Origin: a virus
DNA length: 57,285 nt
Virus record (IMG/VR): IMGVR_UViG_3300046057_000055
Location: 1-57,285 of that record
Reading direction: 5' to 3' (one strand)
Under the pieces are notes generated by a model, which did no database searches, was not told the DNA's origin, and saw nothing but the letters and a program-made list of their open reading frames with translations. Both the position numbers and the translations under genes were made by a program. This document shows positions 3,535-50,564 of this stretch, one piece after another; the first letter of the stretch is position 1; every line of letters starts with the position of its first letter.

Positions 3535-3539
3535 CACAG

Positions 3540-11229: not shown

Positions 11230-13697
11230 TATTGGTCCTCCCTCGCAGTGGTGTGTTCAGTGTATGTCTCAACGGTGGTGCCGTAGAGCATCCCATCGAG
11301 TAGTTCGGTCGTCTGGGTAGACTGCGTCTCCCCCTCGCCGACCGGTGCGACGTCGCTCCCGTCCTGCGAGTAGCTGCCGCTGTCATCCTCGCGGAGCAGC
11401 AGCCGGTAGCCGTCGGCGTTGTTCGAGGGGTCAGTCCACGAGATCGTGGCGTGACGGCCGTCGACGGACTCAACCGCCAGCTCAACCGGCGGGAGGTTCG
11501 TGATGGCCGTTTTCGTAGACGTGTCGTCAAAGAAGTACGTGCCGCCAGTCCCACGACGGTATTGCTGGATGGTGGTCCGAGCAAACGCCTCATATTGCTC
11601 GCCGTCCAGTAACCCATCTCGAGTCTCGCTTGTCTGGTCTGCAGGGAGATCGGCGTGATGGTCCCATGTATCGCTGCCCGTCGGCCTGAACTTCGTCTCC
11701 TGCTTCGAGGGGAAGGCAGCGTTGTTCGTCCACGAGAGTGTTATCTCGCGATCCGTCGAGGCGTCGAGCGCAAGGTCTGATGGGGCGGCAGGCCGGGTGT
11801 GCTCGTGTAGGATGTCGCTGACGACGATACGGTCGTATCCTCGGTGGTCCGCGCCGCCCATGTTGTTCCCCGTGATTCTCACCCGGGCATCCGACGACAT
11901 GTATGAGCCGGGGACGAGAGCGTGGGCCTCAAACCAGTCCGACTTGTTGTACGCCGATGCCTCGTAGTCGTTGTTGTCGGGAATGTTGTTGATCTGGTGT
12001 ATCGTCTGCCACGTCGATCCGTCGTACCATTCGATGCGAATGTCGTCGCCGTGGTTCGTGTCCATCGACCCGATAGCCATCGCGCAGCGGACGATCACAC
12101 CTGATTCGCCGCTCATATCGCCGAGGTCCTTCATCACTGTACTGTTGCCGTCCAGCCTGAGGCAGTACGATCCGCTGTCGGATCCGTCGATTGCCGTATC
12201 TTCGATCCCGCCAGTTACTACCCCGGACTCGGACGTGTCGAGGTACGTGTTGTCCCATTTCGACAGATCCCCGGACTCGAAATCGTCCTCGAAGTAGACA
12301 TTCCCCCGGTTGCCGTAGTCGGCGTACGCGTATTCCGAGACCCGGTATTCGTCGCCACGGTTCTCGGTCCGCTCGATGCGGAACTGGTAACGAGCGCCCT
12401 CCTCGAAATACCCTGAGTCGACAAACTCGTAGCTCTGCCCGGTCTCGTAGGTGACCGCGATCCGTTCTCCCTGCGACGGGTAGTGGGTGCTAATCGTCGT
12501 CCAACCCCCATACCCGCCCCCGTCATCCTTGCGCGCTTCGACGTGGTTGTAGTTCCCGATGTCGGACTTCCGCGTCCACGTCACATCGAAGGTGTCTGAA
12601 CCGGGACGCGATACAGCCGGGTTGTGCGGCGGGATCGGCGTCGTATAGACCGTGTCGCTCGTCGTCCAACTGGAGGTATCACCCTGCGAGTTAACCCCGC
12701 GGACCCGGAATTGGAACTCCGAGTCGATACCGACCTGCTCGTTATAGGGGGCATCGGAACTCGGGTAAACCGACGCCGTCCCGTTCGAGACGGACATATC
12801 GTAGCTCGATGGTTCGACCCACGAGGCCCCATCGCGCGACATCTGCAGGTCGTAGTCCTCGTTGTTCGAGTCGTGGTCCCAGTCAAGATCGATCTGGTAG
12901 TCGTCGACGACCGTCGCGTCGACGTTGCTTGGCGCGACCGGCGCATAGTAGTACTCGATCTCGACCTGTCCGTCGTTCGTCGCCCCAGCGCCCCCGCCGA
13001 CCGTCGTCGAGGCGGCCGTGACGCCACCGGTGTAGCTCGATCCACCGCCGCCAGCGCCAGCGCCGCCGCTGGTGTCCAGACCGGCACCGCCACCGCCGCC
13101 GTAGTATCCCCCACCGCCACCGCCGCCACCGCTCCATCCGTTTTTGGGATCGCCGCCGGCACCACCGGAGCCGGACGACCCATCCTGACCATCGTTCCCG
13201 CCGCCGGACCCGCCGGCCCCTCCACCAGATTGCGTCCCGCCGTGCCCTGCATCGCCGACGAACGACTCTGCGCCGTCCTGACCGGTGTCGCCGCCACCAT
13301 CACCGCCGGGGTTGTACGACCCACTGCCAGAGGAGTGGCCGCCGAGGCCGCCGCCACCACCGGCGACGATGACGCGGTCGGCGAGCGCGGTGCTGTTGTA
13401 TCGGACGTCGCTGGCCCCGCCTCCGGACCCACCGCCGCTGCCGTTTGACCCGTTATCTCCGCCGGATCCACCGCCGTTGAACCCGCCATTGGTCTTGAAC
13501 CCGCCACCGCCGCCGACGTACACTTCGAGCGTGTCGCTCCCGGAGACGGACAGATCGCCTTCGGTGTACCCACCAGCACCGCCTGCATCCGTCGTGTAGC
13601 CGCCACCGGCCCCCCAGCAGCGGATAGTGACTTTCTCGACGCCGTCCGGAACAGTCCAACTGTAACTCCCTGCGCTGGACCAGCTTTCAGTCGGCAT
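11229..13697 (-). CDS. Tail fiber protein with an N-terminal glycine-rich domain and multiple FN3 repeats (822 aa)
   Basis: About 250 aa of GGxGG-rich sequence ending VEIEYYY, then at least 4 FN3-like units (IDLDWDH, FDVTWTR, ITLSWTN, ATISWTD). Confidence 0.7.
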   Translation of the reverse strand: MPTESWSSAGSYSWTVPDGVEKVTIRCWGAGGGYTTDAGGAGGYTEGDLSVSGSDTLEVYVGGGGGFKTNGGFNGGGSGGDNGSNGSGGGSGGGASDVRYNSTALADRVIVAGGGGGLGGHSSGSGSYNPGGDGGGDTGQDGAESFVGDAGHGGTQSGGGAGGSGGGNDGQDGSSGSGGAGGDPKNGWSGGGGGGGGYYGGGGGAGLDTSGGAGAGGGGSSYTGGVTAASTTVGGGAGATNDGQVEIEYYYAPVAPSNVDATVVDDYQIDLDWDHDSNNEDYDLQMSRDGASWVEPSSYDMSVSNGTASVYPSSDAPYNEQVGIDSEFQFRVRGVNSQGDTSSWTTSDTVYTTPIPPHNPAVSRPGSDTFDVTWTRKSDIGNYNHVEARKDDGGGYGGWTTISTHYPSQGERIAVTYETGQSYEFVDSGYFEEGARYQFRIERTENRGDEYRVSEYAYADYGNRGNVYFEDDFESGDLSKWDNTYLDTSESGVVTGGIEDTAIDGSDSGSYCLRLDGNSTVMKDLGDMSGESGVIVRCAMAIGSMDTNHGDDIRIEWYDGSTWQTIHQINNIPDNNDYEASAYNKSDWFEAHALVPGSYMSSDARVRITGNNMGGADHRGYDRIVVSDILHEHTRPAAPSDLALDASTDREITLSWTNNAAFPSKQETKFRPTGSDTWDHHADLPADQTSETRDGLLDGEQYEAFARTTIQQYRRGTGGTYFFDDTSTKTAITNLPPVELAVESVDGRHATISWTDPSNNADGYRLLLREDDSGSYSQDGSDVAPVGEGETQSTQTTELLDGMLYGTTVETYTEHTTAREDQ

Positions 13698-23702: not shown

Positions 23703-25616
23703 TTAGTTGAGCATCTTGCCGAGCTGGTCGAGGCTGCCGTCCTCGCCGCCCTCGTCGGTGCCTGCGTCGCGTTCGAGCTGCGTCGAGACGCCGGACTGCT
23801 GGGAGATCGTGTCCAGGCGGTCCTCGACCTCGTCGACGCGTTCCGCCTTCTCGTTGAGCCGCTCGATCGCATCGGCGACGCCGATGTCCGATTCCTCGTC
23901 GACGCCGAGTGCGGCCTTTGCTGCGTCCTCGCGGACCTCGTAGGTCTCGCCGTCGATCTCGATTTCCGCAGTCTTCGCCTCTGGGCCGGAGAACGTCTCG
24001 GTGAGGTTCTCGACCGCCTGCGTCAGGTCGCTGATCTGTTCTGCGTTCTGTTCGGCGAGGCTTTTGTCGTTCTCGTCGTCGGGGGTGTCATCACTCATGT
24101 CTGTGGTGTCTGAGTCAGTGTCGTCATCCGGCGTATCGCCGCCGGCGTCGTCGTTGGATGGCGATTCGTTACTGGCCGAAGCTGCCTTCCGATGGACTCG
24201 CTGGGCCATGTTGGCCAGCTGGTCTGTGGGACTGTCGACCGTCCCAAGCGACTCGATCACGTTGTTGGTCGCTTGTTCAAGGTCATCGATGCTCCCGTAG
24301 ATAGAGACGTGCGGGTCGTCGAGCGGGTCCGGGAACGCCTCCCGGCGCCAGTCGACATACACGTCATGTTCTGGGAAGTTGACGCCCATCCCGAGTAGAT
24401 CGCCGTCGTAGTCCGTGTCGTCGTTATCCGAAGCCACGACGCGGAACACGTCAACGCCAACGGTGTCATCTTTGGTGACGGACTTCGCGTTGCTGACCTC
24501 GTCGTCTTCGTCGTCTTCGCCGTCCTCCTCATCGTCGTCGACGTCGAGGTCATCGGGATCGTCGCCCCACGTGCGGCCGTCGTGCTCGGAGAGGTCGAAG
24601 TCGACGTCGTCACGGTCGGTGAACCGCTCGATGCCGTGCTCGATGCCGGCGTCTTCGAGGACGTCCGCCGCCGAGTCGATCGTCGCGAACAGCGAGTGCT
24701 GGTTTGCGGTCGACAGAGTGCGCCCCTCCTTCGCGGCGCCGTCCGCATCCTCGGGGGACTTCGATGCGCCCGCCCCGTCATCGGTGCCGAACGTCGGGTC
24801 CGGGTTGGCGGTGGGCCCTGCCGCGGCCTCGGAGTCGCCACCGGTCAGTGCCGAGAGGAACGCCTTCCCGGCCCGGTGGAGCGTCGACTGCTTGCCGGGC
24901 AGGTCCGAGCCATCGACGTCGACGGCCTCGTTAAGGACATCCCAGAGCTGCTGGGCATCGGCCTCGGAGTGGCCGCGCTTCTGGGCCTCCTCCAGGAACC
25001 CATCCAGATCGCCGAGGTAGTCGCCGAGGCGCTTCTCGGTGTCGGCCTTCGTCTCGAGGATCTGGGCGTCGGGCACCGCGGGGATGTCGACCGCCGAGAC
25101 CTCGCGGATGGTCGCACTGACGAGCTCCCAGACGTGGGGGTTCTCACCGAGATCGTCTGGCGCGTCGACGTCGTCGACGGCGTCGTCGTCCAGTTCGTAC
25201 GGGCCATCCCAGTGGACGTCGATCGCCCCGATGGAGTAGCCCGCGAGGACGTCGTCAGCGATGAGCTCCCAGAGGCTGTTTTCGTTGATGCGCCATTCCT
25301 GGACCCACGCGCCGGCGTCGACGGTCTCGCCGCCGATCTCCTCGCTCTCGTCGAGGACTTCGTTGCGCTCGAGGTCCATCCAGTCGTCGGGGAAGACGGC
25401 GTGCATGATGCCGCCGCCCGCCTCGCCGGCCTCGACGAACGTCTCGAACTGGTCGGCGAACCCCCGGATGGTCTCCTCACGAGCGAAGTCGTGCTGGAGG
25501 TCCGCCTTGTCGGGGACCATCACGATGCCAGCGGCGACCTGCTCGTCGTCGTCCTTCGTGACGAACTCGACATCCTTGCGGAACTGCTCGCCGCCGGCCT
25601 TCGTTACGGGCGGCAT
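23703..25616 (-). CDS. Prohead protease fused to an acidic scaffold domain (637 aa)
   Basis: N-terminal ~190 aa look like an HK97-family prohead protease (...GIVMVPDKADLQHD...AGYSIGA...). The rest is a long D/E-rich region with a C-terminal coiled coil. Confidence 0.65.
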   Translation of the reverse strand: MPPVTKAGGEQFRKDVEFVTKDDDEQVAAGIVMVPDKADLQHDFAREETIRGFADQFETFVEAGEAGGGIMHAVFPDDWMDLERNEVLDESEEIGGETVDAGAWVQEWRINENSLWELIADDVLAGYSIGAIDVHWDGPYELDDDAVDDVDAPDDLGENPHVWELVSATIREVSAVDIPAVPDAQILETKADTEKRLGDYLGDLDGFLEEAQKRGHSEADAQQLWDVLNEAVDVDGSDLPGKQSTLHRAGKAFLSALTGGDSEAAAGPTANPDPTFGTDDGAGASKSPEDADGAAKEGRTLSTANQHSLFATIDSAADVLEDAGIEHGIERFTDRDDVDFDLSEHDGRTWGDDPDDLDVDDDEEDGEDDEDDEVSNAKSVTKDDTVGVDVFRVVASDNDDTDYDGDLLGMGVNFPEHDVYVDWRREAFPDPLDDPHVSIYGSIDDLEQATNNVIESLGTVDSPTDQLANMAQRVHRKAASASNESPSNDDAGGDTPDDDTDSDTTDMSDDTPDDENDKSLAEQNAEQISDLTQAVENLTETFSGPEAKTAEIEIDGETYEVREDAAKAALGVDEESDIGVADAIERLNEKAERVDEVEDRLDTISQQSGVSTQLERDAGTDEGGEDGSLDQLGKMLN

Positions 25617-25974: not shown

Positions 25975-26196
25975 TCAGTCGCTACGCCAGTCGCCCAGCA
26001 TGGCGACTGTCTTCCCGATCACGTATGGGGCGCCCACTGAGACGGCGATCACCGCAGCCTCAACGGGGTCGGTGACCAGTGCGCTGATGAAGGCTGCCAC
26101 GATGACCAGCACCCCGAACACGATCGCGCCGACGATGTACGCCCGGGGCGCGCTCTCGCGAGCGGCGTCGGTGATGGCAGCGATAGTGCCGTTCAT
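25975..26196 (-). CDS. Small membrane protein (73 aa)
   Basis: MNGTIAAITDAARESAPRAYIVGAIVFGVLVIVAAFISALV... ATG 26196 chosen within the ORF-track ORF. Confidence 0.5.
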   Translation of the reverse strand: MNGTIAAITDAARESAPRAYIVGAIVFGVLVIVAAFISALVTDPVEAAVIAVSVGAPYVIGKTVAMLGDWRSD

Positions 26197-26200
26197 AGAG

Positions 26201-26350
26201 TCACCGGAGTTTGTTGAGCAGTCGCTGGGCAAGCGATTGCGCTGAGTTGCCGCCCTCATCGTCGCCGGTGTCGAGTCCGGCTTCGTCGTAGACGTCCTCT
26301 GCGTCGACATCGCCCAACCACGAGTCCTGATCAGAGGGTATTTCGACCAT
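26201..26350 (-). CDS. Hypothetical small acidic protein (49 aa)
   Basis: Hand translation MVEIPSDQDSWLGDVDAEDVYDEAGLDTGDDEGGNSAQSLAQRLLNKLR. Lies directly downstream of the portal stop. Confidence 0.4.
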   Translation of the reverse strand: MVEIPSDQDSWLGDVDAEDVYDEAGLDTGDDEGGNSAQSLAQRLLNKLR

Positions 26351-26352
26351 CG

Positions 26353-29300
26353 TTACGCCTCCGCCGATTCGGTGTAGATGTCAGTCATGTCTCCATCGTC
26401 TGATGTGTAGATATCGTCCGGGCTGTACGTCTCCGACCCGTCTTTGCCGACGATGAGTTCGTTCTCTTCCTCGGCCAGGCCGGGCGTCGTGTGCGACGAG
26501 CCCCATACTTCATCGACAGGGATCTCGGTCTGGATGATAACACCATCCTCCTCGCCCTCATCCGCGAACTGCTCGGCATGAGCTGGGAATGTCGACCACG
26601 ACTCGAGCGTCCGATGCTCGATGTCGATATCTTCGCCGTTTTCTGCGGCTTCCTGAATCTGCTCCGCGAACTCTCCACTGACGCCACGCGCCACCGGGAC
26701 AGTCTCGCCGAACGTCTCTCTGAGAATCTCTCTCGTGACTGCAACGCTATCACCGATGGCCGTAACAGGGTCGTCTCCCTCGGCTGCTGGGAGAGGGTCG
26801 CCGACAGTATCCGGGTCGGCAGTGGCATCGTCAGGAATGTTGTCGTTGCCTGTCGTGTCGATCGCTGCGCCCCACAACTCTGCCGTGTTATCGTTGAGGA
26901 GTGACCCGTCTTGTTCGGCGCGCCAAGCATCAAAGGACTGTGCAGCCTCGTGTTGTTCAGGTCCATAGGCCGGGTCGACGACGTAGTCGTCGTTCAGTGC
27001 CCCTTCGGATGCTTCCCTGACCGCAGAGGTTTCTGTGGAGAGTGCATCCTGGACGACCTGCGCCGATTCGACTTCCTGGTCGCCGACATCAATTGTTTCT
27101 GTTTGATGGATGTACGCGGATTCGGCAACCACACGCTCCCCGCTTTCGTCGAGGTTGTCGACATGTTCTCTCGCTGCCGCCAGTGCATCACCCACGGTTG
27201 CGCCCTCGGCGACGGCGTCCTCAACAGCGCTCTGTAACTGCTCCCGGGCTTCGTCGCTGCCATTCCACGAGTCAGGAGCACCATCTTGGATCGCTTCCGA
27301 CCCGGGTGTGTTGTCGCCATCAGGTGAGCAGTATAGTCCACCACGCGGCCCCTCATGGACTGTCCCGTCGCACTCGCTCTCGTCATCGATGTGGGTGGCG
27401 TCGTCGGGGACTCCTGATGGAGTCTTCTGCCGCTCGCTAAAATCCCGGCCGCCCGCTGATCGCGCCGCCAAGAGTGAGATGTCGTCCGGGACGTCCTCGG
27501 CATCCGGCATCGGCCCTTCCGGGAGCCGGCCGTGGAAATTGGTGATCTCAACATACTCGTAGTCCAGCCGGATGTTGTCGTAGTGATAGCTACCGTGACT
27601 ACTCGCGTTCGCCAGTGCCGACCACTCCGTCGCCGGGACGTCAACGTAGGCGTACAGCGACGACTGGCCTTCGTCGCGCTGGAACGACAGGTAGAGCTCG
27701 TTCGTCTCAAAGTCGAACAGCCCATCATCCAAATTCGAGCTGTCGAACTCCATCTGCTCGATCGAGTCCTTTGAAACGAGATCGGCCTCGACGGCAGCCC
27801 ACTCGCGTTCGGCGATCTTGTTGTCTGGCGGCGGGAGCTGGTTCTCGATGGGAGGTTGATCTGGCCCCTCCCCAGGGGCGCCCTGGGCCTCCCGCCCCAC
27901 GTTCGCGACGAGTGTGTCGCCGTCGATCTCGTGGTCCTCGGGGAGTGGGTCCTCGCCAACCATCTCGAGGGCGCGATTCACCGGGACGGCGCCCCTGACG
28001 GCCTGGATCTTCCGGCGGGCAACGGCGGCGTCCTCCTTGGGTTGGTCGGCGCCGCGCAGCTCGAACTCGATCGTCCAGTCACGGATCCCAAACGCCTTCT
28101 GGTGGAGGATCTGGTAGAGCCGTGCAGCGAACTTGTGCTGCTCGGGCTGGATCACCTCCAGGGCGAAGTCCCGATCCTGTTGGTCGGAGTTCGAGTAGTT
28201 TGCCGACTCGGTGATCCCGATCTTGACTGGCGGGACCTCTAGCACTTTCGCGATCTCGTGCTCGTTCTTCTCCCGGAACTGCCGGAAGTCCATCTCCTCG
28301 CTGATGCCCTGGCCCAGCGGCTCGATCGAGATCTCGGCGTCGGTGCCGTCCTCGGTCTGGAGGTCTTTCTTGTCGAGGAACTTCTCGACCTCCAGCACGA
28401 CGGCGCGATGGGACTCCGCACGGAGCCCGTTGAGCATCTGCCGCAGGTCCTCGCGGGACTCTTCGGAGAGCTCGCCGCCAGTCACCTTGACGACCATCCG
28501 AGGGATCGTGTCGTTATCGAAGAAGTCGCGGTTGTAGTCCTTGGCCGCTTCGTCGGCCGTGATCGTCCGGATGGCGCTCACCCAGTCCGGGATGCCGTAG
28601 TCGTCGGCCAGCGGGGACGGGTTGGTGACGAAGATTAGCTCGTTGGCTGGATCGTGCTCGAGCTTTTCTGCCGACCCGGTGACGACGTCGCCAGTCTCCT
28701 GGTCGACGAAGAGGGGCTCCCGCTTGTCGTCCTCGCTGCGCCCACGCCAGCGGTCGCCGGCCTCGCCGAAGTACCGGCGCCGGCCGTCGCGGATCTGGAC
28801 GTAGCCCCTACTCGCAAACTCCGCCCCATCGGCGTCGACGAACCTCCCCTCCTCAGGATGACGGGGCTGGTCGAACTGGCTCTGGGGCTTCCGAACACGG
28901 ACGGTGTTCGCCGGGACATGCGCGAGGCCGACCGGGTCGCCCTCCATGTTGGTGAGGATCTCGAGCGCACACCAGCCGATGAGGTGGTAGTCCTGGCGAG
29001 CGAGCTCGAGGACTTCCTCGGGCGTCGTCGGCTCGGCCTTCTGGCGGGCCTTGGTCTGCCAGCGTGAGTCCAGGCCGCGCCAGAAGTCGCGGATCGTCTC
29101 GCGCTCGTCGTCGCTCGCCTCCTCGGCGTCGACGTCGACGTGCGGGACGATCGAGAAGCCGTAGCCCACCTCGTAGCGGGCCTTCTTGCGGATGCCGACC
29201 GAGAGCGTCTCGTTCAGTTCGCTGAACGACGCCAGCCGGTCGGGATTGTACGGTGGCTTGATGCCGGCGCCGTGGGTACGGATCCGGCGGTCGGAGAGCT

Positions 29301-29391
29301 GCGTGCTGTTCTCGGCCTTCGCCAGCGGCGTGCCATCGCCGATCCCCGAGACCTTGACCTCGATCTCGCCGCTATCGTCAGCGCTACTCAT
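26353..29391 (-). CDS. Portal protein with a KTSC domain and a long acidic C-terminal extension ending in an ADP-ribosyltransferase-like motif set (1012 aa)
   Basis: Lies immediately downstream of TerL. The N-terminal ~520 aa are portal-sized. KTSC-like segment LYLSFQRDEGQSSLYAYVDVPATEWSALANASSHGSYHYDNIRLDYEY. The C-terminus carries VARG...SWST...ENELIVGKDG. Confidence 0.8.
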   Translation of the reverse strand: MSSADDSGEIEVKVSGIGDGTPLAKAENSTQLSDRRIRTHGAGIKPPYNPDRLASFSELNETLSVGIRKKARYEVGYGFSIVPHVDVDAEEASDDERETIRDFWRGLDSRWQTKARQKAEPTTPEEVLELARQDYHLIGWCALEILTNMEGDPVGLAHVPANTVRVRKPQSQFDQPRHPEEGRFVDADGAEFASRGYVQIRDGRRRYFGEAGDRWRGRSEDDKREPLFVDQETGDVVTGSAEKLEHDPANELIFVTNPSPLADDYGIPDWVSAIRTITADEAAKDYNRDFFDNDTIPRMVVKVTGGELSEESREDLRQMLNGLRAESHRAVVLEVEKFLDKKDLQTEDGTDAEISIEPLGQGISEEMDFRQFREKNEHEIAKVLEVPPVKIGITESANYSNSDQQDRDFALEVIQPEQHKFAARLYQILHQKAFGIRDWTIEFELRGADQPKEDAAVARRKIQAVRGAVPVNRALEMVGEDPLPEDHEIDGDTLVANVGREAQGAPGEGPDQPPIENQLPPPDNKIAEREWAAVEADLVSKDSIEQMEFDSSNLDDGLFDFETNELYLSFQRDEGQSSLYAYVDVPATEWSALANASSHGSYHYDNIRLDYEYVEITNFHGRLPEGPMPDAEDVPDDISLLAARSAGGRDFSERQKTPSGVPDDATHIDDESECDGTVHEGPRGGLYCSPDGDNTPGSEAIQDGAPDSWNGSDEAREQLQSAVEDAVAEGATVGDALAAAREHVDNLDESGERVVAESAYIHQTETIDVGDQEVESAQVVQDALSTETSAVREASEGALNDDYVVDPAYGPEQHEAAQSFDAWRAEQDGSLLNDNTAELWGAAIDTTGNDNIPDDATADPDTVGDPLPAAEGDDPVTAIGDSVAVTREILRETFGETVPVARGVSGEFAEQIQEAAENGEDIDIEHRTLESWSTFPAHAEQFADEGEEDGVIIQTEIPVDEVWGSSHTTPGLAEEENELIVGKDGSETYSPDDIYTSDDGDMTDIYTESAEA

Positions 29392-29433: not shown

Positions 29434-31065
29434 TCATATGTATGAAACACCCGTCGAGTTGCTATCGTCATCCTCGTCGTCGGTGCCATCAGGATCCTCA
29501 TCGGCGAGACCCAGGGACTCTATCCGCCGGAGCCCCTGCTCGGCCATGTACCACGCCGCGATCAGGTCGGGCGTGTGGCCCTGGAGCCGCCCGTCTTTGA
29601 GCTCCAGCGACTGCATCGCCTGGACGAAGTCCTCGGTCGGCTGGTGGCCGCGGTGGAACAGCATCGACCCGTTCTCGACAAGTGTCCGGAGCCGCGGGAT
29701 GCCGTTCTCCCAGCTGTGTTTCTTTCCACTCGTCGGGATGCCAGTGACTTTCGCGCGCAGTTGAGCGTCGAACTCGATCGCGTCCTCGACGACGTAGCCT
29801 TGCATCCCGTTGCTCTCGATCACGATCATCGCCGGGTCGAACCGACGGTCATACTCGGTGAGCAGCGTCTTCACCTCGCTGGGCTGCATCCCCGCCTCGG
29901 CGTGGGCGTCCAGGAGACGACGTCGGCCGTCGCGCTGGAGCAGCCAGACGTTGAACGCGGCGTCGTCGCCGGTCGGCGAGTTCGCCGGGTCGTGGGCGAC
30001 GACGATCGCCTCGCCGGCGCCGGCGGTGTACTCCTGAGGCGGATCCTGGCTGCGGATCGAACAGCCGCCGTCCTCCGCCGCAGCCCGGACGTCGGCCGCC
30101 TCGATCAGGTTGCCCGAGGCGCCGCGGATCACCAACGCGTACTCCCGCCAGAAGCGGTGGTTCGCCATCTTCGAGCGCTTGTCGTCGAGCCACTCCGGGC
30201 CGCGGGCCTCTGGCCAGAGCACCTGCATCGTCTCGCCCTCGCTCCATGGGTTCTCGACCTCGGTGTAGAGCGCCTCGTCAGGACGGCGCTCGGCCCAGTC
30301 GTCGTCCTCGCCGAACTGCTGATCCCAGACGTCGAGGATCGCCGGGTACTCGTCGACCGCGTAGCCCTCAAGCGTCCGGAAGTGGGCGTAGATGTCGTCC
30401 GGGCGCTTCCGAGTGCCGATCACGACCGTCCGGCCGTTGTCCTTGACCATCGGGACCGTGACGGCCTCGATCCAGTCGAGGACGTCGTCGGTCGAGCCGT
30501 CGCCCTTCTCCTTGATGATGTCGTCCAGGATCAGCAGGTGGGCACGGTCACCTTCGATCCCGCCGTCGAGCCAGCCGGCGTTCAGGATCGAGCCGTTCGC
30601 GAAGATCTTCGCCGTGATCGTGTTCTTCTGGGCCGGCTCGTTCAGGTTGGTGAGCCACTCGTTGCGCTCGACCATCTTCCAGAATTCGGTGTCGGCCTTC
30701 TTCTGGACCGAGCCCTGGTTGTTCATCGCCCAGATCCCGCGGAACCCGTCCTTGTACTCGAGGCAGCCGATCAGGTATGTCAGCGTGATCGTCGTCTTCA
30801 GCCCGTCACGGTGACAGAGCAGGACGCGGTCGCCGGCGTCGAACTTCTCGAGCCAGCGTTCGTGATGATCGCCCAGGAGGTGGTAGGGGTCATCCTCCAT
30901 CTCTTCGGCCATGTAGTTCCGCGTCAGCTCGTTGGCGAAGTCGATCCACGAGGCCGGCCCCTCGAAGGGGTTCAGCAAGTCCCGTTTGGTCTCCGGCGAC
31001 GTCGTCGCCGCGGCAAGGCGCTCCGCTGCGGCTTCCGGGTCGACGTCGTTGCTCATGCTACACAT
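29434..31065 (-). CDS. terL: Terminase large subunit (543 aa)
   Basis: ATPase-like LLCHRDGLKTT and Walker B-like HLLILDDI, with a C-terminal nuclease-sized domain. Precedes the portal. ATG 31056 is an alternative start. Confidence 0.85.
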   Translation of the reverse strand: MCSMSNDVDPEAAAERLAAATTSPETKRDLLNPFEGPASWIDFANELTRNYMAEEMEDDPYHLLGDHHERWLEKFDAGDRVLLCHRDGLKTTITLTYLIGCLEYKDGFRGIWAMNNQGSVQKKADTEFWKMVERNEWLTNLNEPAQKNTITAKIFANGSILNAGWLDGGIEGDRAHLLILDDIIKEKGDGSTDDVLDWIEAVTVPMVKDNGRTVVIGTRKRPDDIYAHFRTLEGYAVDEYPAILDVWDQQFGEDDDWAERRPDEALYTEVENPWSEGETMQVLWPEARGPEWLDDKRSKMANHRFWREYALVIRGASGNLIEAADVRAAAEDGGCSIRSQDPPQEYTAGAGEAIVVAHDPANSPTGDDAAFNVWLLQRDGRRRLLDAHAEAGMQPSEVKTLLTEYDRRFDPAMIVIESNGMQGYVVEDAIEFDAQLRAKVTGIPTSGKKHSWENGIPRLRTLVENGSMLFHRGHQPTEDFVQAMQSLELKDGRLQGHTPDLIAAWYMAEQGLRRIESLGLADEDPDGTDDEDDDSNSTGVSYI

Positions 31066-31564: not shown

Positions 31565-32815
31565 TCAGTGTTCGCCGGCGTTGACGCCGGCCTCGAGCTG
31601 GCGCTCGGCCTCAGCCACGCGCCGCTCGATCACCTGGCGGTAGGTCTCCTCGTCGACCTCGAAGCCGATGCAATCGCGCTCGTTCCGAAGCGCCGCCACT
31701 GCGGTGCTCCCCGAGCCCAGGAACGGATCCAGAACGACATCCTCCTGGGAAGATGACTGCTCCAGCAGCGTCTCCAGAAGGCCGACCGGCTTCTCGGTCG
31801 GGTGCTCGTTGCCGTCTGAGGAGTGCTTGTGCAGGATGACGTCCGACACCGTCCGGTCGAGCGATCGGGCATCGGCGACGTCGTGGACGGCGTAGAGGAT
31901 GAACTCGTGTTGGTAGCCGTAGCGGACGCCGCCACTGCCGAACGACGTCTGGTTGTTCGGGGCCGACTTCAGCCAGACGACGCAGTTGAGGACCTCGAAG
32001 CCGGCATCCTGGAGGACATCCCGGAAGTCGTCGTACGTCTTCCAGGAGGCGAACGCGTAGAGGTGGCCGTCCTCGGCGAGCACTCGCTTGAGCTCGGGGA
32101 CGATCGCCCGCCAGAGGTCGACCGCTTCCTCGTAGCCGTCGTTCTCCAGCGAGCCGGCGTGCTCGGTCTCCGAACTCCCCAGCGTCTCACTCAAGTCGAG
32201 ATCGACGCCGTAGGGCGGGTCCGTGAGGACGACGTCGACGCTGTCGTCGTCGACGTGTTCGTGGAGACCTGCGACAGCGTCCTCGAAGTGGACCTGTGTC
32301 GTAGGGTCGTACTCGTAGGCGGGCGCCGTCGCGTTGTCCACGCGGATCTCCGAGAGCAACTCGTCGAGATCTTCGTCGGCCGCGTCGACGAGGTCCTGGA
32401 CGTCCTCGCCGCGCCCCGCGTTCAGCAGGTAGTCGTACTCGAGGGCGTCGCGCTTGGTGTCGTGCTCGCCGGAGATCTTGTTGAGCTCCTGGCGCCAGAG
32501 CCGGCGTTCAGCGTCGTCCTCGAAGTCGTAGAGCTTGACCGGGACCTCCTCGAGGCCGACCTCCTGGGCCGCCCGCCAGCGGTGCTCGCCATCGGCGATC
32601 AGCCCCTCAGCGTTGCCGTCGTACCCAGGAAGGTCACCCGTGTTCGCGACGATCGCGTTGCCGATCCAGCCCTTCTCGCGAAGGTTGTCCACGAGGAGCC
32701 CGAACATCTCGTCGGACTGCTCGTTCGGGTTGTCGCCGTCGACGCAGAGTTCATCCGGGGGGACGGTCGTTTCCGCTTCTGGCTGTGGAAGCTCGTCGAG
32801 CGTGAGTTCGTCCAT
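31565..32815 (-). CDS. ParB-like nuclease domain fused to an N6-adenine/N4-cytosine DNA methyltransferase (416 aa)
   Basis: ParB motif ADGEHRWRAA. Motif IV VLTDPPYGV precedes motif I VLDPFLGSGSTAVAA (beta-class order). Confidence 0.85.
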   Translation of the reverse strand: MDELTLDELPQPEAETTVPPDELCVDGDNPNEQSDEMFGLLVDNLREKGWIGNAIVANTGDLPGYDGNAEGLIADGEHRWRAAQEVGLEEVPVKLYDFEDDAERRLWRQELNKISGEHDTKRDALEYDYLLNAGRGEDVQDLVDAADEDLDELLSEIRVDNATAPAYEYDPTTQVHFEDAVAGLHEHVDDDSVDVVLTDPPYGVDLDLSETLGSSETEHAGSLENDGYEEAVDLWRAIVPELKRVLAEDGHLYAFASWKTYDDFRDVLQDAGFEVLNCVVWLKSAPNNQTSFGSGGVRYGYQHEFILYAVHDVADARSLDRTVSDVILHKHSSDGNEHPTEKPVGLLETLLEQSSSQEDVVLDPFLGSGSTAVAALRNERDCIGFEVDEETYRQVIERRVAEAERQLEAGVNAGEH

Positions 32816-37122: not shown

Positions 37123-37362
37123 TCATGTTGTTCGATAGAGGTGATGCCGGGCATCGCCGTAATCCGGATGCTCAGTGACGAGGTCCTGGTCTTCGAGGCG
37201 GTCAAGCGCATCCTGCACGCCTGTCTCTGAGAGAGCCGTCGTCTCGATCAGTTCCCGCTGGGTGAGTGGCCCCTCGTTGTCCAGGACGACGTAGACGAGT
37301 TTCGTCGCCGGCGTGGACGATGCGAGCTCGGTCGGGATCTCGATCTGTTCCTGGTCAGTCAT
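37123..37362 (-). CDS. Small winged-helix DNA-binding protein (79 aa)
   Basis: KLVYVVLDNEGPLTQRELIETTALSETGVQDALDRLEDQDLV. ATG 37362 overlaps the upstream stop by 8 nt (ATGACTGA). Confidence 0.65.
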   Translation of the reverse strand: MTDQEQIEIPTELASSTPATKLVYVVLDNEGPLTQRELIETTALSETGVQDALDRLEDQDLVTEHPDYGDARHHLYRTT

Positions 37363-40300
37363 CGTTGCGATCACCTCCGTCGGTCGCGACGGCAGGAGCC
37401 GTCTCGTCGATTGTCGCCTGGTCGGGCCGCTCGCCGATCGCGACGATCCGCGAGTCCGACCGGGACTCGTCGACGTCGCCGACCAGCGTCCGAACCAGCG
37501 GCAGCCACTCCGCGACCGCCGGATCGACAGCCTCTCGCACACCCCAGATGTCGACTGTTCCGCTGGGGCCGAACAGCTCGTGGATCTCGGCATCGGCGAC
37601 GTCGACGCCGAGCCGAACCAGCAGTTCGTAGACGACATCGCCCAGCTTCTGATCCGCCGTCGTGGTGGCGTAGGGGCTGTCCTCCGGGCCGCTCCGGGTA
37701 CTGCCGGTTGCGTACCACGGCAGCACCGTCGCCGTCCAGGACGTCCCGTCGACGCGGTCGATCAGGTCCAGCGCCGCCAGCGTCTCGGCGTGTCGGTCGA
37801 ACGTGCCGCCGTGGATCCCGGCCTGGTCGGCGATCTCCGACCGGCCCAGGCCGCCGTCAGCCTCGAGCAGCACCTTCAGGATCTTCCCGATGCTCGGCGC
37901 CTTGTCAGGGAGGAGCCGGCTCGCCGGGAGGGACGCCAGTGCCGATTCGACGTCCCGCAGTTCGACATCTCGGTAGACGCTTTTCAGACTGCTGAACGCA
38001 TCGGCGACGTCGTACGGCGAGTCGCAGTAGGCCTGGAACAGCCGGACCGTCCGCCGGAATGCGTCCTCGTTGCCGTGGGGCATCATGCCCTTCTGCTTGA
38101 GGAACCGCTCGACGGCGTAGCGCATCCCGGCGTAGCCGTTGGCGTCGGCCACCTCGATCGGGAGCTCGATCTCGTCGTAGTCGGTCATGTCGTCCTGGAG
38201 CTCCTCGTTCTTCCGCCGCAGCGCCGCCTCGACGTCGCGGCGGTAGGTGTCGGCGTGGGGGCCCGACACCACCCAGGACGCCCGGAGGTCCGCCGTCGGA
38301 TCGTCGGGCAGCACCTCGCGGGGCATTGCCTGTTTCCGGCGCCGTTCGTCGGTCTCCCAATTGTTTCGGTACACCGAGTGGGCGCCATAGGACGACTGCT
38401 TGGAGACAGTTTCCGAAAGGAACGTCACGAGCTCCTCGTCGTTGGTCAGCTCCGGCTTCGGCACCCGGAGGTCGACCGTGATCGGGATGCCGATCGCGTG
38501 GTAGACCGCGGTCGCCGTCATCAGTAGGCCGTGGGCGTCCTTCAGCAGGTCCTGCCGTTCGCCGGCGTCAAGATCGTCGAGGTTGCCGAGATTCTCGAGG
38601 AGGATACAGCAGACAGTCCGGAGCCGGTCGCTGAAGTCGTCGTAGTTCTCCTCGTCACGAGAGAACCAGCCGATTTGGGCCGCCCGGCGCAGCAGCCGGT
38701 CAACCGCTTCGTCGACGACATCGAAGCAGTGCTCGAGGTCCTCGCCCAGCGCCGACGGCGTCAGGATCTTGCCCCACGCCTTCGGCGAGAGTAACGTCGT
38801 TCCGAGCCGCACCAGCGTCCTGGCGGCGCCCGACCATTGCGTCGAGACGACCAGCCGATCGCGGAGGCAGCTCAGGTACGACACCCGGCTGTCACCGAAC
38901 TGCTCGACTGGGTAGCGGTTGAACGTCACGCCGTCTGCCCGGTCGGCGGCCAGGATCCGGCTGTGTAGCGGCCAGCTGCTCGGTTCGCCGCCCTGCTCGA
39001 GCTGGGGGAGCCACTGCACGTAGCCGGCGTCCCCGGCCTGGCCGGTGTCGGCGAGGGCGGCTTCGGCGGCCGGCAGGTCCTCCCCTCTCCCCGACCCTCC
39101 GGCACCATACACTGTACTTTCTGTAGACTGTTGGGTTCCAGTAACGTCGCCGGGACTGGCCTCGCCGGTCTCGGCAAATTCGTTCTCGAACCCACCGATC
39201 ACGGTCGTCTGATCGGGGTGAACCGGCCAGTTCTCGTCATCGAGCATCCCGGCGGCCGTCTCGCCGGCGTCGGTGAGATGGTGGGTGTTTGTCGTCCCCG
39301 CGCGGTCGATCTCGACGTAGCCGTGCTCGTCGGCGAGCAACTCGACGTAGCCCCGGACCGACGACGCGGCGAGGTCGATCTCGGGGTCTGCAGCCATGTC
39401 GCGGACGGTCGCGCCGTCGTTGCGCTCGAGGTGGGCGAGGATCGCGAGTTTGCCCGGGCGCTTGTCCATCGTCTGCAAGTCAGCCCAGATCGCGTGCTCG
39501 TCGGGGGCGGGCTGATCGGCGCCGTCGTCGGGCGTGCGCCGGCCCGGGTTCCGACGCTCAGTAACGCAGTCGGCCCACTCGGGATGGCGCTTGCAGAGGA
39601 GCTGCTCGATCTTCGGCGGGCAGACGACGGTCGTCTCGCCGGCGTCGGCCAGCAGCGTGATCGCGTGGAGCGAGCCCTCGCGCGTCCCGCGGTCGTCGCA
39701 CTCGTCCCAGGCGCTCGCATCCAGCCGGAGCACGAACTCGAGCTCGACGTCGGCCGCCTCGAGCAGCGGGCCGATGACGCCGGCGAGGAGATGCAGGCCG
39801 CCGATCTGGATCGCGCCGTGCCCGGTGCCAGCGTTCGCGAGCTCAGACTCGACGTCCTCGCGAAGCTGCTGGTAGCGCTCCTGGCGCTCGGGGGACTTCT
39901 CCAGCACGTCGCCGTCGGGCTCATCGAGCGCGAGTGCGTAGGAGGTGAGCTTCGCGATCATCGTCCGGACGCGCTCGTCGACGAGCTCGTCCGGGAGGAT
40001 CTCTGCCGTGATCGCCGCGGCGACCGTGCCGCGTTGATCGGTGGGGCGACCGTACTCGTGCGCGAGGTTCCGGATCGCCCGGCAGACGGGATCGAGCAGC
40101 TGGACCGCAACGTCACCCAGCCACTGCTTCTTCGCCGGCGGCGTGTCCTGGACGATTGTGTCGAGGCGGCGCTGGCTCGGCGGCGTGGGCGACAGCCGGA
40201 GCGTCTCGGCCGGCGCCGCGAACGCCGGCTCGTACTCGACGTGCTCGACGTCGACGGTGTCGTAGTAGCGGTCGAGGTGGGCCTCTGCGCGCTCCTCGTA

Positions 40301-40693
40301 GAGCTCTTCCCAGCGTCGCTTTCGATCGAGGTGTTGCTGGGCGGCCTGCTGGAGGTACTCCTCCTGCCGGGATTTCTTCGCGAGGTGCTTCTCGGCGGCG
40401 TCCTCGAACGTGTCGGTCGGGAGCGCGTCCTGGAGGTGGACGTCGGCCTGCTCGGCCTGGACACGGTAGTGGTCCTCCGTGGCGTAGTCTTCGGCCTCGC
40501 CGCTGCGAGCCGCCAGCTTGCGGGCCCGGACCTCGTGGAGATCGTCGGGATCGTCGGCCGTCGTGAGCGACCGGAGCTTCTTGGTCGCGTGGACGGTCTG
40601 GCAGCGCGTGCAGGTCGCGCTCGCCTGGTAGCGCAGTTCGTCGACGACCCATAGGTTGCTACAGTTCGAACAGCCAACGAGGTGGTACGTCAT
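37355..40693 (-). CDS. Large zinc-ribbon / multi-wHTH protein (1112 aa), replication-initiator (RepH-like) candidate
   Basis: N-terminal zinc ribbon YHLVGCSNCSNLWVVD...CTRCQ (DUF5817-like from memory). Internal wHTH-like segments (KLAILAHLERNDGATVRDMA; ILKVLLEADGGLGRSEIADQAG). No Walker A motif seen. The function is inferred. Confidence 0.6.
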   Translation of the reverse strand: MTYHLVGCSNCSNLWVVDELRYQASATCTRCQTVHATKKLRSLTTADDPDDLHEVRARKLAARSGEAEDYATEDHYRVQAEQADVHLQDALPTDTFEDAAEKHLAKKSRQEEYLQQAAQQHLDRKRRWEELYEERAEAHLDRYYDTVDVEHVEYEPAFAAPAETLRLSPTPPSQRRLDTIVQDTPPAKKQWLGDVAVQLLDPVCRAIRNLAHEYGRPTDQRGTVAAAITAEILPDELVDERVRTMIAKLTSYALALDEPDGDVLEKSPERQERYQQLREDVESELANAGTGHGAIQIGGLHLLAGVIGPLLEAADVELEFVLRLDASAWDECDDRGTREGSLHAITLLADAGETTVVCPPKIEQLLCKRHPEWADCVTERRNPGRRTPDDGADQPAPDEHAIWADLQTMDKRPGKLAILAHLERNDGATVRDMAADPEIDLAASSVRGYVELLADEHGYVEIDRAGTTNTHHLTDAGETAAGMLDDENWPVHPDQTTVIGGFENEFAETGEASPGDVTGTQQSTESTVYGAGGSGRGEDLPAAEAALADTGQAGDAGYVQWLPQLEQGGEPSSWPLHSRILAADRADGVTFNRYPVEQFGDSRVSYLSCLRDRLVVSTQWSGAARTLVRLGTTLLSPKAWGKILTPSALGEDLEHCFDVVDEAVDRLLRRAAQIGWFSRDEENYDDFSDRLRTVCCILLENLGNLDDLDAGERQDLLKDAHGLLMTATAVYHAIGIPITVDLRVPKPELTNDEELVTFLSETVSKQSSYGAHSVYRNNWETDERRRKQAMPREVLPDDPTADLRASWVVSGPHADTYRRDVEAALRRKNEELQDDMTDYDEIELPIEVADANGYAGMRYAVERFLKQKGMMPHGNEDAFRRTVRLFQAYCDSPYDVADAFSSLKSVYRDVELRDVESALASLPASRLLPDKAPSIGKILKVLLEADGGLGRSEIADQAGIHGGTFDRHAETLAALDLIDRVDGTSWTATVLPWYATGSTRSGPEDSPYATTTADQKLGDVVYELLVRLGVDVADAEIHELFGPSGTVDIWGVREAVDPAVAEWLPLVRTLVGDVDESRSDSRIVAIGERPDQATIDETAPAVATDGGDRNDD

Positions 40694-41005
40694 CGACAGA
40701 CCACCGGCTGGGCGCCGAAGGCTGGCGTCGGAACGGTCGAATTGCACACGAGTCTCTGGGCTACTCGGCTGTATTCGTGGCCGTGCGCCCTGCTACGCAG
40801 GAGATACGCACAGCTACTGCTGTCCGGTAGGCTTAAGTCGATCCTGGCCGCAGACATAGACCAAGGCACCCTACCTCCTCGGTCTACAGCCCGCGAGCGC
40901 CGGCTGTATCCATCGCGGTGTGGCGTCCTATCTTGACTACGGTGTGCATGGTTTTCGTGATTTAAAAAGCCACGCGTTCGAACCGCATGGCGCGTCGGAC
41001 GCACG

Positions 41006-49089: not shown

Positions 49090-50151
49090 TTAAGTAGTAG
49101 CGATTGCCCGATCGATCGGCGGCGCGATCGTATCGTCGGCGACCGTGAGCTGCCGCCCGCTGTTGATGCCGTCGTCCTCAACGAGGTCGTAGCGGATCAG
49201 GTCCTGAAGTCGGTTCCGCCGCGCCCGGCGACTGATCGGCGTCTGGTCTCGGTTTCGGTAGATCCGATCGGCCAGCTCATCGTACCGGGCGTGGAGCTCT
49301 TCGCTCGATAGCTCGCCGGTCTCGTGAATCAGTGCGTAGATGACGTGGTGGTGATAGCTCATCGACTCCAGTTGCTGTTTGAGGATGCGCTGTTCGGCGA
49401 GTTCGTAGCCGTCGTCGACGTCGGCGGTATGGATCGTATGGTGGTCGCGGCGCAGCGCGAGATCGGCGGCCGCCTTGAGCGTCTGGATCGCCCGCCGGGC
49501 TCGCCCGTCGACGTTGCGTGCGATCTCGTGGAGTTGCTCGGTCCGGTAGGCGCCGGCGTCGAGCCCACTCCCCGCCCGTACCCCCAGGATGTCCGTGAGC
49601 TCGTTCGGCGAGTAGCGATCCAACTGGATCGACCGATCCTCGATCCGGGCGTCGCCCGAGTCGTCGAGGCGGGCCCGCCAGGCAACCGGATCGTGGCAGA
49701 TCGCCACGGTCGAGATCTCCGGCAACTCGTCGAGCGCCACCAGGACATCCGCCCGCGTCATCGTGTGGGCTTCGTCGAGGACCACGATGTAGGGCTGGTC
49801 GATTTGGTCCCGAAGCGCTCGCTTGAGGTCGGTGACGTTCGACTGTGCACCGTCAGCCGACGCCGTCGGATGCTTGTCGAGGGCCGTCTCAAGGACGTCG
49901 CAGGGCGTCATCCGAAGACAGCGCAAGTGGGCCGTGGCGACGCCCTCCGCTTTGGCTTCGAGCTTGTCGAGCCAGTGGCGGACGAGCGTCGTCTTCCCCA
50001 CTCCAGACGGACCCCAGATCAGGACGTTGTCAGCCTCTCGCCCCTCCCGCACCGGCTGGAACGCACGCGCGAGTTCGTTGCGCTCGGCGTCCCGGTGGGG
50101 CAGCTGGCGCGGCAAATAGTCCTCATCGAAAACACCCGCATCCTGAAACAT
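49090..50151 (-). CDS. orc1: Orc1/Cdc6 replication initiator (353 aa)
   Basis: Walker A WGPSGVGKTT and Walker B VVLDEAH, with a C-terminal winged helix. ATG 50151 chosen, with the TATA box about 25-30 nt upstream. Confidence 0.85.
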   Translation of the reverse strand: MFQDAGVFDEDYLPRQLPHRDAERNELARAFQPVREGREADNVLIWGPSGVGKTTLVRHWLDKLEAKAEGVATAHLRCLRMTPCDVLETALDKHPTASADGAQSNVTDLKRALRDQIDQPYIVVLDEAHTMTRADVLVALDELPEISTVAICHDPVAWRARLDDSGDARIEDRSIQLDRYSPNELTDILGVRAGSGLDAGAYRTEQLHEIARNVDGRARRAIQTLKAAADLALRRDHHTIHTADVDDGYELAEQRILKQQLESMSYHHHVIYALIHETGELSSEELHARYDELADRIYRNRDQTPISRRARRNRLQDLIRYDLVEDDGINSGRQLTVADDTIAPPIDRAIATT

Positions 50152-50175
50152 ATGGCCGACATGACGCGGACGTGG

Positions 50176-50183
50176 TATATAAA
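50176..50183 (-). promoter_or_regulatory. TATA box (tttatata on the minus strand) for orc1
   Basis: tatataaa on the plus strand, 25-32 nt upstream of ATG 50151 (leaderless-type spacing). Confidence 0.5.
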
Positions 50184-50258
50184 GCACACCGCTATTTCCG
50201 ACGTCCATTCGTCTCGTGGACTCTCGCAAACTGATCGCGTAAGATGGAGAGCCGAACG

Positions 50259-50564
50259 TCAGCCGCCGGGCGTGTGACCGTCGTCGACGACGTCCAGGTA
50301 CCAGCCCCAGTGCGTAAATCGCTGCGGACAATCGGGTCTGTGGGGAAAGTCGTCGATACCCGCAGACGGCTCCCGCGTCAGTTTCGTCGCAGCGCCACAC
50401 GCATCGCAGACCAGCTCCGTGGGCTCGCCAACCCGACAGCCATCATCGTCGCCGGGCTGGGAAACGATGATCGAGAAGTGCGTGTCTGGGTCCGTGATCG
50501 ACTGGAAGATCGTGCTGGGCTCGATGCCGTAGCTCTGGCCGTCCTCCTGCGTCTCGCCACTCAT
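50259..50564 (-). CDS. Hypothetical protein with a CxxC...C motif (101 aa)
   Basis: ORF track. ELVCDACGAATKL...PDCPQRF. Confidence 0.5.
   Translation of the reverse strand: MSGETQEDGQSYGIEPSTIFQSITDPDTHFSIIVSQPGDDDGCRVGEPTELVCDACGAATKLTREPSAGIDDFPHRPDCPQRFTHWGWYLDVVDDGHTPGG

Follow-up and report, generated by a model that had tools for sequence, protein, structure and literature searches.

We analysed a 57,285-nucleotide stretch of viral DNA (IMG/VR record IMGVR_UViG_3300046057_000055, positions 1 to 57,285; hereafter the window) in which one gene (26353..29391, stop codon included) encodes a 1012-aa protein made up of a portal, a KTSC domain and a C-terminal cassette that very probably ends in an ADP-ribosyltransferase (ART) domain. 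All parts of this gene lie on the minus strand. A sequence-only reading of the same DNA had described the KTSC domain and a set of C-terminal ART-like motifs, at coordinates that we confirm, as two additions to a portal. Residues 1-638 (27478..29391) are collinear with the portal of Halorubrum virus BJ1 in its complete 651-aa form (66% identity over query residues 6-638, where the BLASTP alignment ends) and match Pfam Phage_portal at aa 123-457 (E 2.8e-23) and the phrog_12 portal family (E 3.6e-39). The KTSC domain is indeed present, at aa 551-611 (27559..27741, previously drawn as 27541..27759; Pfam PF13619, E 7.8e-12 at 45 bits, the cut-off being 25). Since the BJ1 portal carries the same domain (E 9.4e-12), KTSC is an ancestral trait of the BJ1-type portal lineage and we rejected it as an acquired feature.

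As judged from these alignments, the protein is a BJ1-type portal whose true addition is aa 639-1012, a 374-aa extension (26356..27477) that the BJ1 portal lacks and that had no counterpart by tblastn in 50,697 deposited phage and archaeal virus records. The extension is very acidic (24-28% D+E per 100 aa) and has three parts. A conserved leader or linker at aa 649-690 (27322..27447; RDFSERQKTPSGVPDDATHIDDESECDGTVHEGPRGGLYCSP) contains the core GPRGGLY (aa 681-687, 27331..27351), which has the form GP[RQK]GGxY in the wider family, and the same leader stands ahead of different cargo in P0008, P0012, L005 and L015 (P and L numbers denote our family proteins and loci, respectively). The middle region, aa 701-829 (26905..27291), is modelled as helices and a beta-hairpin, TIDVGDQEVESAQV (pLDDT 45-85 in the first AlphaFold model), and is common only to a close clade of six proteins (P0001-P0006). 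The last part, aa 830-1012 (26356..26904), is the R-S-E ART-fold domain supported by structure modelling, Foldseek, the family profile and dN/dS. The same fused ORF occurs in two other IMG/VR contigs (the near-identical L007, and L008, whose aa identity is about 70-84% depending on the region) and in a partial protein from a Salinarchaeum metagenome-assembled genome (MAG; P0001).

Motif conservation and fold of the added domain

The three motifs noted previously, VPVARG, LESWST and EENELIVGKDG, occupy the positions reported for them (aa 898-903, 929-934 and 975-985) in the same order, with 29 aa between R902 and S931 and 47 aa between S931 and E978. R902 (26686..26688) falls within the predicted strand aa 897-904. 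S931 (26599..26601) opens the S-x-[ST] motif S931-W932-S933-T934 (26590..26601), which overlaps the predicted strand aa 929-933, and the [QE]-x-E motif E976-N977-E978 (26458..26466) comprises E976 at 26464..26466 and E978 at 26458..26460, the latter starting the predicted strand aa 978-982. To quantify conservation, 137 homologous domain instances and the query (138 in total) were aligned to the family profile. R902 is kept in 137/138, with Y or F before it in 98 and G after it in 107; S931 is kept in 129 and W932 in 128, and position 933 is S or T in 130. Position 978 is E in 120 and D in 9. At position 976, 67 sequences have E, 23 have Q and 30 have an alignment gap. Conservation across the 137 domains is highest in the R, S and E columns, and the resulting pattern, [YF]-R-G … S-x-[ST] … [QE]-x-E-[VIL]-[VI] together with the alternation of E and Q, is the R-S-E clade signature.

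Word-indexed searches recovered about 20 relatives and, when run with a broad family profile, only eight proteins, all already found. An HMMER profile search of 1.84 billion representatives, each standing for a cluster at 50% identity, returned at least 378 at E<=1e-3, 150 of them at E<=1e-10, and the R / S-x-[ST] / [QE]-x-E set is retained both among homologous portal extensions and across this family of at least 378 clusters. Because most members are very acidic (D+E above 20% in 121 of 161 proteins), the family is presumably halophilic for the most part. Several giant multi-domain proteins also bear the ART-like domain, among them P0029 (7059 aa, about 11 copies) and P0027, P0030 and P0054 (each longer than 2000 aa).

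Selection on the gene was assessed against L008, a full-length portal-KTSC-leader-ART homologue from another viral contig. With synonymous sites near saturation, dN/dS was 0.055 for the ART domain (84% aa identity), 0.081 for the leader (71%), 0.17 for KTSC (61%) and 0.26 for the portal (70%), and 0.065 for the 374-aa extension as a whole. No other part of the gene is as constrained as the added ART domain, which evolves under purifying selection.

Two AlphaFold2 models, covering aa 745-1012 and aa 830-1012, were built on the family alignment. Both reached a pTM of 0.76 with core pLDDT of 84-94, and the shorter model had a mean pLDDT of 80. In the models a helix follows the strand that contains R902, and another helix (aa 936-943) comes after S931, which is on the next strand but one; two more strands and a 12-residue loop then lead to E978 at the start of the next strand. 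This predicted order matches that of a canonical ART (strand 1 with R, strand 2 with STS, and the ExE of the ARTT loop running into strand 5), the match being one of order along the chain. When the trimmed model was searched against the Protein Data Bank (PDB) with Foldseek, about 44 of the top 50 matches were ART-superfamily structures, and the longer model gave the same list. The best match was the Rhs toxin TreX (probability 0.98, E 8e-3), and others were KptA/Tpt1, HopU1, Vis, Certhrax, the ART-like domain of CNFy, C3bot, C3cer, LT-IIb, EcPltA and PARP12/14/15. The fold search that the sequence-only reading had proposed thus returns almost exclusively ADP-ribosyltransferases, at weak E-values. 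Against BFVD, nine matches had E<=1e-3 (best 1.3e-6), mostly to uncharacterised C-terminal domains, including those of a MuF 'phage head morphogenesis' protein, an uncultured archaeal virus protein and HCTV-1 R4TI14; lower matches included proteins named ADP ribosyltransferase, a portal and ModA (rank 45, E 0.12).

A link to a curated family emerged through relatives of the window protein. Pfam DRAT (PF07357) was matched by 7 of the 43 domain sequences searched and by 6 of 82 full-length proteins of the family (best E 3.2e-7), and in the three proteins inspected the R, S and E motifs are collinear with approximately positions 174, 200 and 245 of the 256-position model. The window extension gave no match to DRAT even at E<=10, and the window protein falls outside Pfam DRAT in its present form, DRAT being a related family. 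The proposed resemblance to C3/VIP2/Alt-type enzymes therefore holds as regards an R-S-E ART fold and motifs, whereas the nearest curated family by sequence is DraT, and that via some relatives only. PF03496 (ADPrib_exo_Tox) had no match in the window protein and one among the 82 family proteins (E 3.7e-15), which may or may not overlap the family domain. Assignment to ART-PolyVal or Tox-ART-HYD2, which have an H-Y-D active site, was rejected, as the active-site columns here are R, S and E. PHROGs offered only unnamed families (phrog_24083) and weak matches to 'minor head protein' and 'RNA polymerase ADP-ribosylase'. Matches to protelomerase, MexJ and NagJ from the direct Pfam, NCBIfam and PDB searches (the last also run with 8- and 43-member profiles) were at chance level and were dismissed. 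A tblastn search with a DRAT-matching relative found nothing in the 50,697 deposited phage records; with the family consensus the only match was a weak one (E 0.3) in HCTV-1 and HCTV-16, and a local HMM search verified that this is a remote relative in partly degenerate form. Because direct sequence searches were empty, the assignment draws on family conservation, the structure models, the fold search and the DRAT link, and these make it very probable that aa 830-1012 belongs to the ART superfamily and, within it, to the R-S-E clade.

Exchange of C-terminal cassettes and gene neighbourhood

The combination of BJ1-type portal, KTSC and leader is followed by an ART domain in the window, L007 and L008, by other cargo in L005 and L015, and by none of these in BJ1. 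A 1152-aa sister protein in L005 (1298-4756) has the BJ1-type portal, KTSC and the same leader and has a shorter R-S-E-like domain of another kind at its end (ELYRGV…LESWSKS…EQEAIVFGG), which has a weak Pfam DRAT match (E 5e-3) and is missed by the family HMM. Directly after it, a separate gene (P0008, L005 4759-5769) encodes the same leader with kinase-like cargo. In L015 (1961-4897; IMGVR_UViG_3300028304_000287) a kinase-like domain (…NWDVKGDNLMIGDDGSVQVFDYD…) replaces the ART-like domain behind the BJ1-type portal-KTSC and a GPRGGLY leader. Such a conserved carrier, on which the C-terminal cassette varies, is how polymorphic effectors packaged in the head are built. Two further loci from the leader scan, L016 and L018, were discarded as spurious, their matches lying in GC-rich antisense ORFs.

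The module is also found on other carriers. At least three unrelated portal types bear it, namely a Mu-type portal (P0023), Phage_portal_3 (P0026, L010 and L011) and another type (L009), and 3 of 82 family proteins contain Phage_Mu_F. Stand-alone homologues of 240-300 aa start with ELHPRDxEGKF, and in 3/3 long contigs examined their genes lie directly downstream of a MuF gene within terminase-portal-MuF-capsid modules; four stand-alone members share the C-terminal end IPNILLGYDFEPP. A protein with a GPRGGLYY leader and two ART-like domains likewise follows a MuF gene in L017. No MuF domain was found by Pfam in the 1012-aa protein, and no MuF domain or gene anywhere in the window; since the window lacks a MuF gene, the portal itself is the carrier of the cassette in this virus.

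Two leader motifs recur in the family, EGP[RQK]GGxY in 23 of 161 proteins and HPRDxxG[KR]F in 16 of 161. Both stand mostly upstream of the ART-like domain, the second also in its longer form ELHPRDxEGKF (the motifs are seen in P0004-P0006, P0010, P0015-P0018 and others), and the giant proteins P0114, P0140 and P0153 each have several copies of leader motifs. Both could be targeting or cleavage signals; we found no literature on either.

In HCTV-1 (NC_021330, 64830-74560; L012 and L013), three large proteins are encoded around the MuF gene, between the portal and prohead protease genes. The MuF gene is flanked by gene 107 (675 aa, hypothetical) and gene 109 (1210 aa, 'zeta toxin domain protein'), which contain distant, partly degenerate copies of the domain with the S position replaced by N and V, respectively. 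A portal-MuF fusion exists in another haloarchaeal virus, HGTV-1, whose portal (NC_021328, L006 3605-5821) is annotated 'Portal and Mu gpF-like protein'.

The portal gene of the window is placed between the genes for the large terminase subunit (29434..31065, minus strand; phrog_38, E 2.6e-49; Pfam Terminase_6C), its upstream neighbour, and an XkdF-type prohead protease (23703..25616, minus strand; Pfam Peptidase_S78_2, E 5.8e-28). A 111-aa ORF downstream of the portal (25975..26310), between it and the protease, had only a weak Pfam match to DUF5831. In the protease, Peptidase_S78_2 covers aa 17-132 and is followed by about 500 extremely acidic residues with a PspA/IM30-like coiled coil at the end; the protein also matches phrog_26743 (E 1e-176) and probably combines protease and scaffold in one chain. 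A ParB N-terminal domain joined to an N6/N4 DNA methyltransferase is encoded at 31565-32815 (minus strand), just upstream of the genes for the small and large terminase subunits. At 11229-13697 and 8467-11229 (both minus strand) lie genes for two large proteins that resemble tail fibres and contain fibronectin type III domains; one of the proteins has an ALK/LTK-type glycine-rich domain (E 1.9e-21). The archaeal-type replication or regulation genes of the window are a LAGLIDADG endonuclease-like ORF (3411-4880, plus strand), an Orc1/Cdc6 AAA+ protein (49090-50400, minus strand) and a 1130-aa protein with DUF5817 and HTH domains (37355-40747, minus strand); no tRNA genes were found in the window. 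Given a G+C content of 58-69%, very acidic encoded proteins, the presence of Orc1/Cdc6 and haloarchaeal DUFs, kinship with BJ1 (Graaviviridae), which is the sole nucleotide-level relative of the window among deposited viruses, and the near-identical IMG/VR viral contig L007, the source is a haloarchaeal tailed virus or provirus.

Proposed action of the domain and rival explanations

The reading that we favour, with moderate confidence, is that the gene encodes a portal-fused, capsid-internal R-S-E ART that is released and injected to ADP-ribosylate a host protein. On this account the extension is a mobile cargo cassette fused to the C-terminus of a BJ1-type portal; its architecture, fold, motif conservation, constraint and exchange are documented above, whereas catalysis, cleavage, ejection and the target are inferred. 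Since the C-termini of portals (crown or barrel) point to the capsid interior in established portal structures, the extension would lie inside the head at the portal vertex, in 12 copies per virion. Before acting, the domain would probably be released by a cut at or near the leader as the head matures, and the neighbouring XkdF-type prohead protease is a plausible processing enzyme. Once freed, it would be ejected with the DNA, as are T4 Alt and the MuF-fused toxins of bacteriophages, and, early in infection, would bind NAD+ and transfer a single ADP-ribose to a host protein; an ExE motif is usual in enzymes specific for arginine. A broader extension of this account, which we regard as tentative and on balance doubtful, is that in haloarchaeal tailed viruses the portal C-terminus and the slots next to portal and MuF genes form an exchangeable cargo platform. 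EGP[RQK]GGxY and ELHPRDxEGKF would then act as capsid-targeting signals, protease-release signals or both, the swapped effectors (R-S-E ARTs, the kinase-like domain and the giant multi-ART polyvalent proteins) would be loaded and injected, and the target that the ART modifies as infection begins would be specific to archaea.

Several observations weigh against a portal-fused, injected ART. The Foldseek matches to solved structures are weak, with E 8e-3 at best and TM-scores of 0.3-0.45, so that the fold argument is one of enrichment and not of any single strong match. The window extension has no match in Pfam (E<=10), NCBIfam or PDB sequences, and it is tied to a curated family weakly and only through relatives, whose DRAT scores are about 25 bits or less, at or below the Pfam cut-off (24.6 bits at most among the individually listed matches of relatives, against a gathering threshold of 25). 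The residue before R902 is Ala where the family norm is Y or F (A-R-G here against a consensus of [YF]-R-G), and R and S are 29 aa apart, whereas in C3 and iota toxin the distance is about 43-46 aa. The analysis identified neither a cleavage site nor an immunity gene nor an ADP-ribosylhydrolase, no search having been aimed at immunity or ADP-ribosylhydrolase genes. Finally, the domain is tethered to the portal, which puts its ability to leave the capsid in question.

This tether is also the starting point of the rival that we rank highest, though still as unlikely, in which an active ART-fold enzyme stays attached to the portal, is never ejected and acts in the producing cell or the procapsid, possibly on a virion or packaging component, on packaged DNA ends or on host factors late in infection. 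Some R-S-E ARTs (pierisin, Scabin) modify DNA. The domain is joined covalently to a structural protein that occurs in 12 copies, no cleavage site was found, the adjacent KTSC has been described as DNA-binding (PMC9503650), and ARTs beside packaging genes might counter portal- or terminase-directed immunity (PMC9503650). However, the occurrence of the same module as a free-standing protein after MuF genes and within giant polyvalent proteins is a better fit to deliverable cargo, and its exchange for a kinase-like domain resembles effector polymorphism. Rather less likely again is that the domain serves as an NAD+ glycohydrolase or generates a small molecule derived from ADP-ribose, so depleting or converting NAD+ to the detriment of NAD-dependent host defence or metabolism. 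Transferases and hydrolases are inseparable by sequence and fold, and ART-fold toxins that are pure NADases exist (PMC13285283; the RES family, PMC9503650). The full R-S-[QE]xE set is nevertheless kept here, including a conserved first E/Q; that first E is required for transfer to arginine in characterised enzymes (PMC11606950), and in RES-type phosphorylases S and E are replaced (PMC9503650).

Descent from an ART fold without catalysis, leaving the portal with an appendage that has a structural role or organises DNA (an internal plug, say, or a sensor of packaging), is improbable. It would accommodate the relatives with degenerate motifs (N and V at the S position in HCTV-1 genes 107 and 109, respectively), and it has a structural parallel: P22-like portals have long C-terminal barrels. 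Yet every catalytic residue is kept in the window protein and its close relatives, R, S and E are the most conserved columns, and the extension is not needed for portal function, because BJ1 manages without it. Least credible of all is that the three motifs arose by chance in an acidic, low-complexity tail. Short motifs are easily found in sequence as rich in D and E as this extension, but a confidently folded model, 378 homologous clusters, the conservation of individual columns and a dN/dS of 0.055 refute that explanation.

Comparison with known systems

To our knowledge, almost nothing is known of the proteins that archaeal tailed viruses inject or of how they take over the host early in infection. 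The portal-fused ART gene is a concrete candidate backed by purifying selection, with R902, S931 and E978 as obvious targets for mutation and aa 830-1012 as a defined construct, and the two recurrent linker motifs are testable candidates for targeting or cleavage signals. The sequence-only reading had considered a portal-linked ART in an archaeal virus to be new. This is so for the portal-fused form, and overstated otherwise: ARTs fused to MuF or portal/head proteins, with predicted co-injection, have been described for bacteriophages (PMC9503650, PMC5512222, PMC5576092), and the annotations of two archaeal tailed viruses, HVTV-1 and HCTV-5, include ART genes (PMC8651126). Given these precedents and the degenerate copies in HCTV-1, the principle of an ART carried by a head protein is already known, and in bacteriophages it is established.

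The closest parallels are the MuF- and portal-fused ARTs of bacteriophages (PMC9503650) and the MuF polymorphic toxins (Jamet et al. 2017, PMC5576092), which likewise place an ART at the C-terminus of a head-internal carrier in a terminase-portal module. As in the polymorphic toxins, C-terminal cassettes vary among related carriers and stand-alone copies occur beside MuF genes. Unlike them, the window virus is archaeal and its carrier is the portal, with no MuF domain on the same polypeptide, and no immunity gene was seen here, none having been specifically sought. The window ART domain also differs from bacteriophage MuF-ARTs in having no match to ADPrib_exo_Tox or any other Pfam family, and conserved leader motifs (EGPRGGxY, ELHPRDxEGKF) precede the cargo in the present family.

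T4 Alt differs in being a free protein rather than a portal fusion, and it shows no detectable sequence similarity to the window domain. Alt has an N-terminal capsid-targeting leader that is cleaved by the prohead protease. It is alike in being an R-S-E ART that is packaged in the head, where it awaits injection with the DNA to modify host proteins (PMC5512222). DraT (dinitrogenase reductase ADP-ribosyltransferase; DRAT, PF07357) represents the only curated family matched by several members, whose motifs are collinear with the C-terminal 90 positions of its model; in contrast, the window protein itself has no match, the matches of its relatives are partial, and DraT is a cellular regulator of nitrogenase. 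TreX, an arginine-specific R-S-ExE ART (PMC11606950), resembles the window domain as a minimal ART core with ExE that forms the C-terminal cassette of a polymorphic delivery protein, whereas TreX and Tre1 are bacterial toxins delivered on Rhs proteins via type VI secretion (T6SS), have a dedicated immunity protein and show only 14-15% identity and TM-scores of 0.31-0.45. The ARTs of polyvalent proteins (Tox-ART-HYD2, PMC5512222) are similar in occurring, sometimes in many copies, in giant multi-domain phage proteins, as does the domain in P0029, and are set apart by an H-Y-D active site where the present family has R-S-E. A paucity of polyvalent proteins in archaea has been reported (PMC5512222), and yet the present family includes giants of up to 7059 aa.

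Relative to these systems, the new elements are an ART fused to the portal of an archaeal virus, a large family of ART-like proteins (at least 378 clusters) for which Pfam and NCBIfam have no model, the two leader motifs and the exchange of cassettes at the portal C-terminus. If the cargo-platform account is true, these viruses would have an archaeal, halophile-dominated counterpart of both the capsid-targeting sequences of T4 and the MuF toxins of bacteria.

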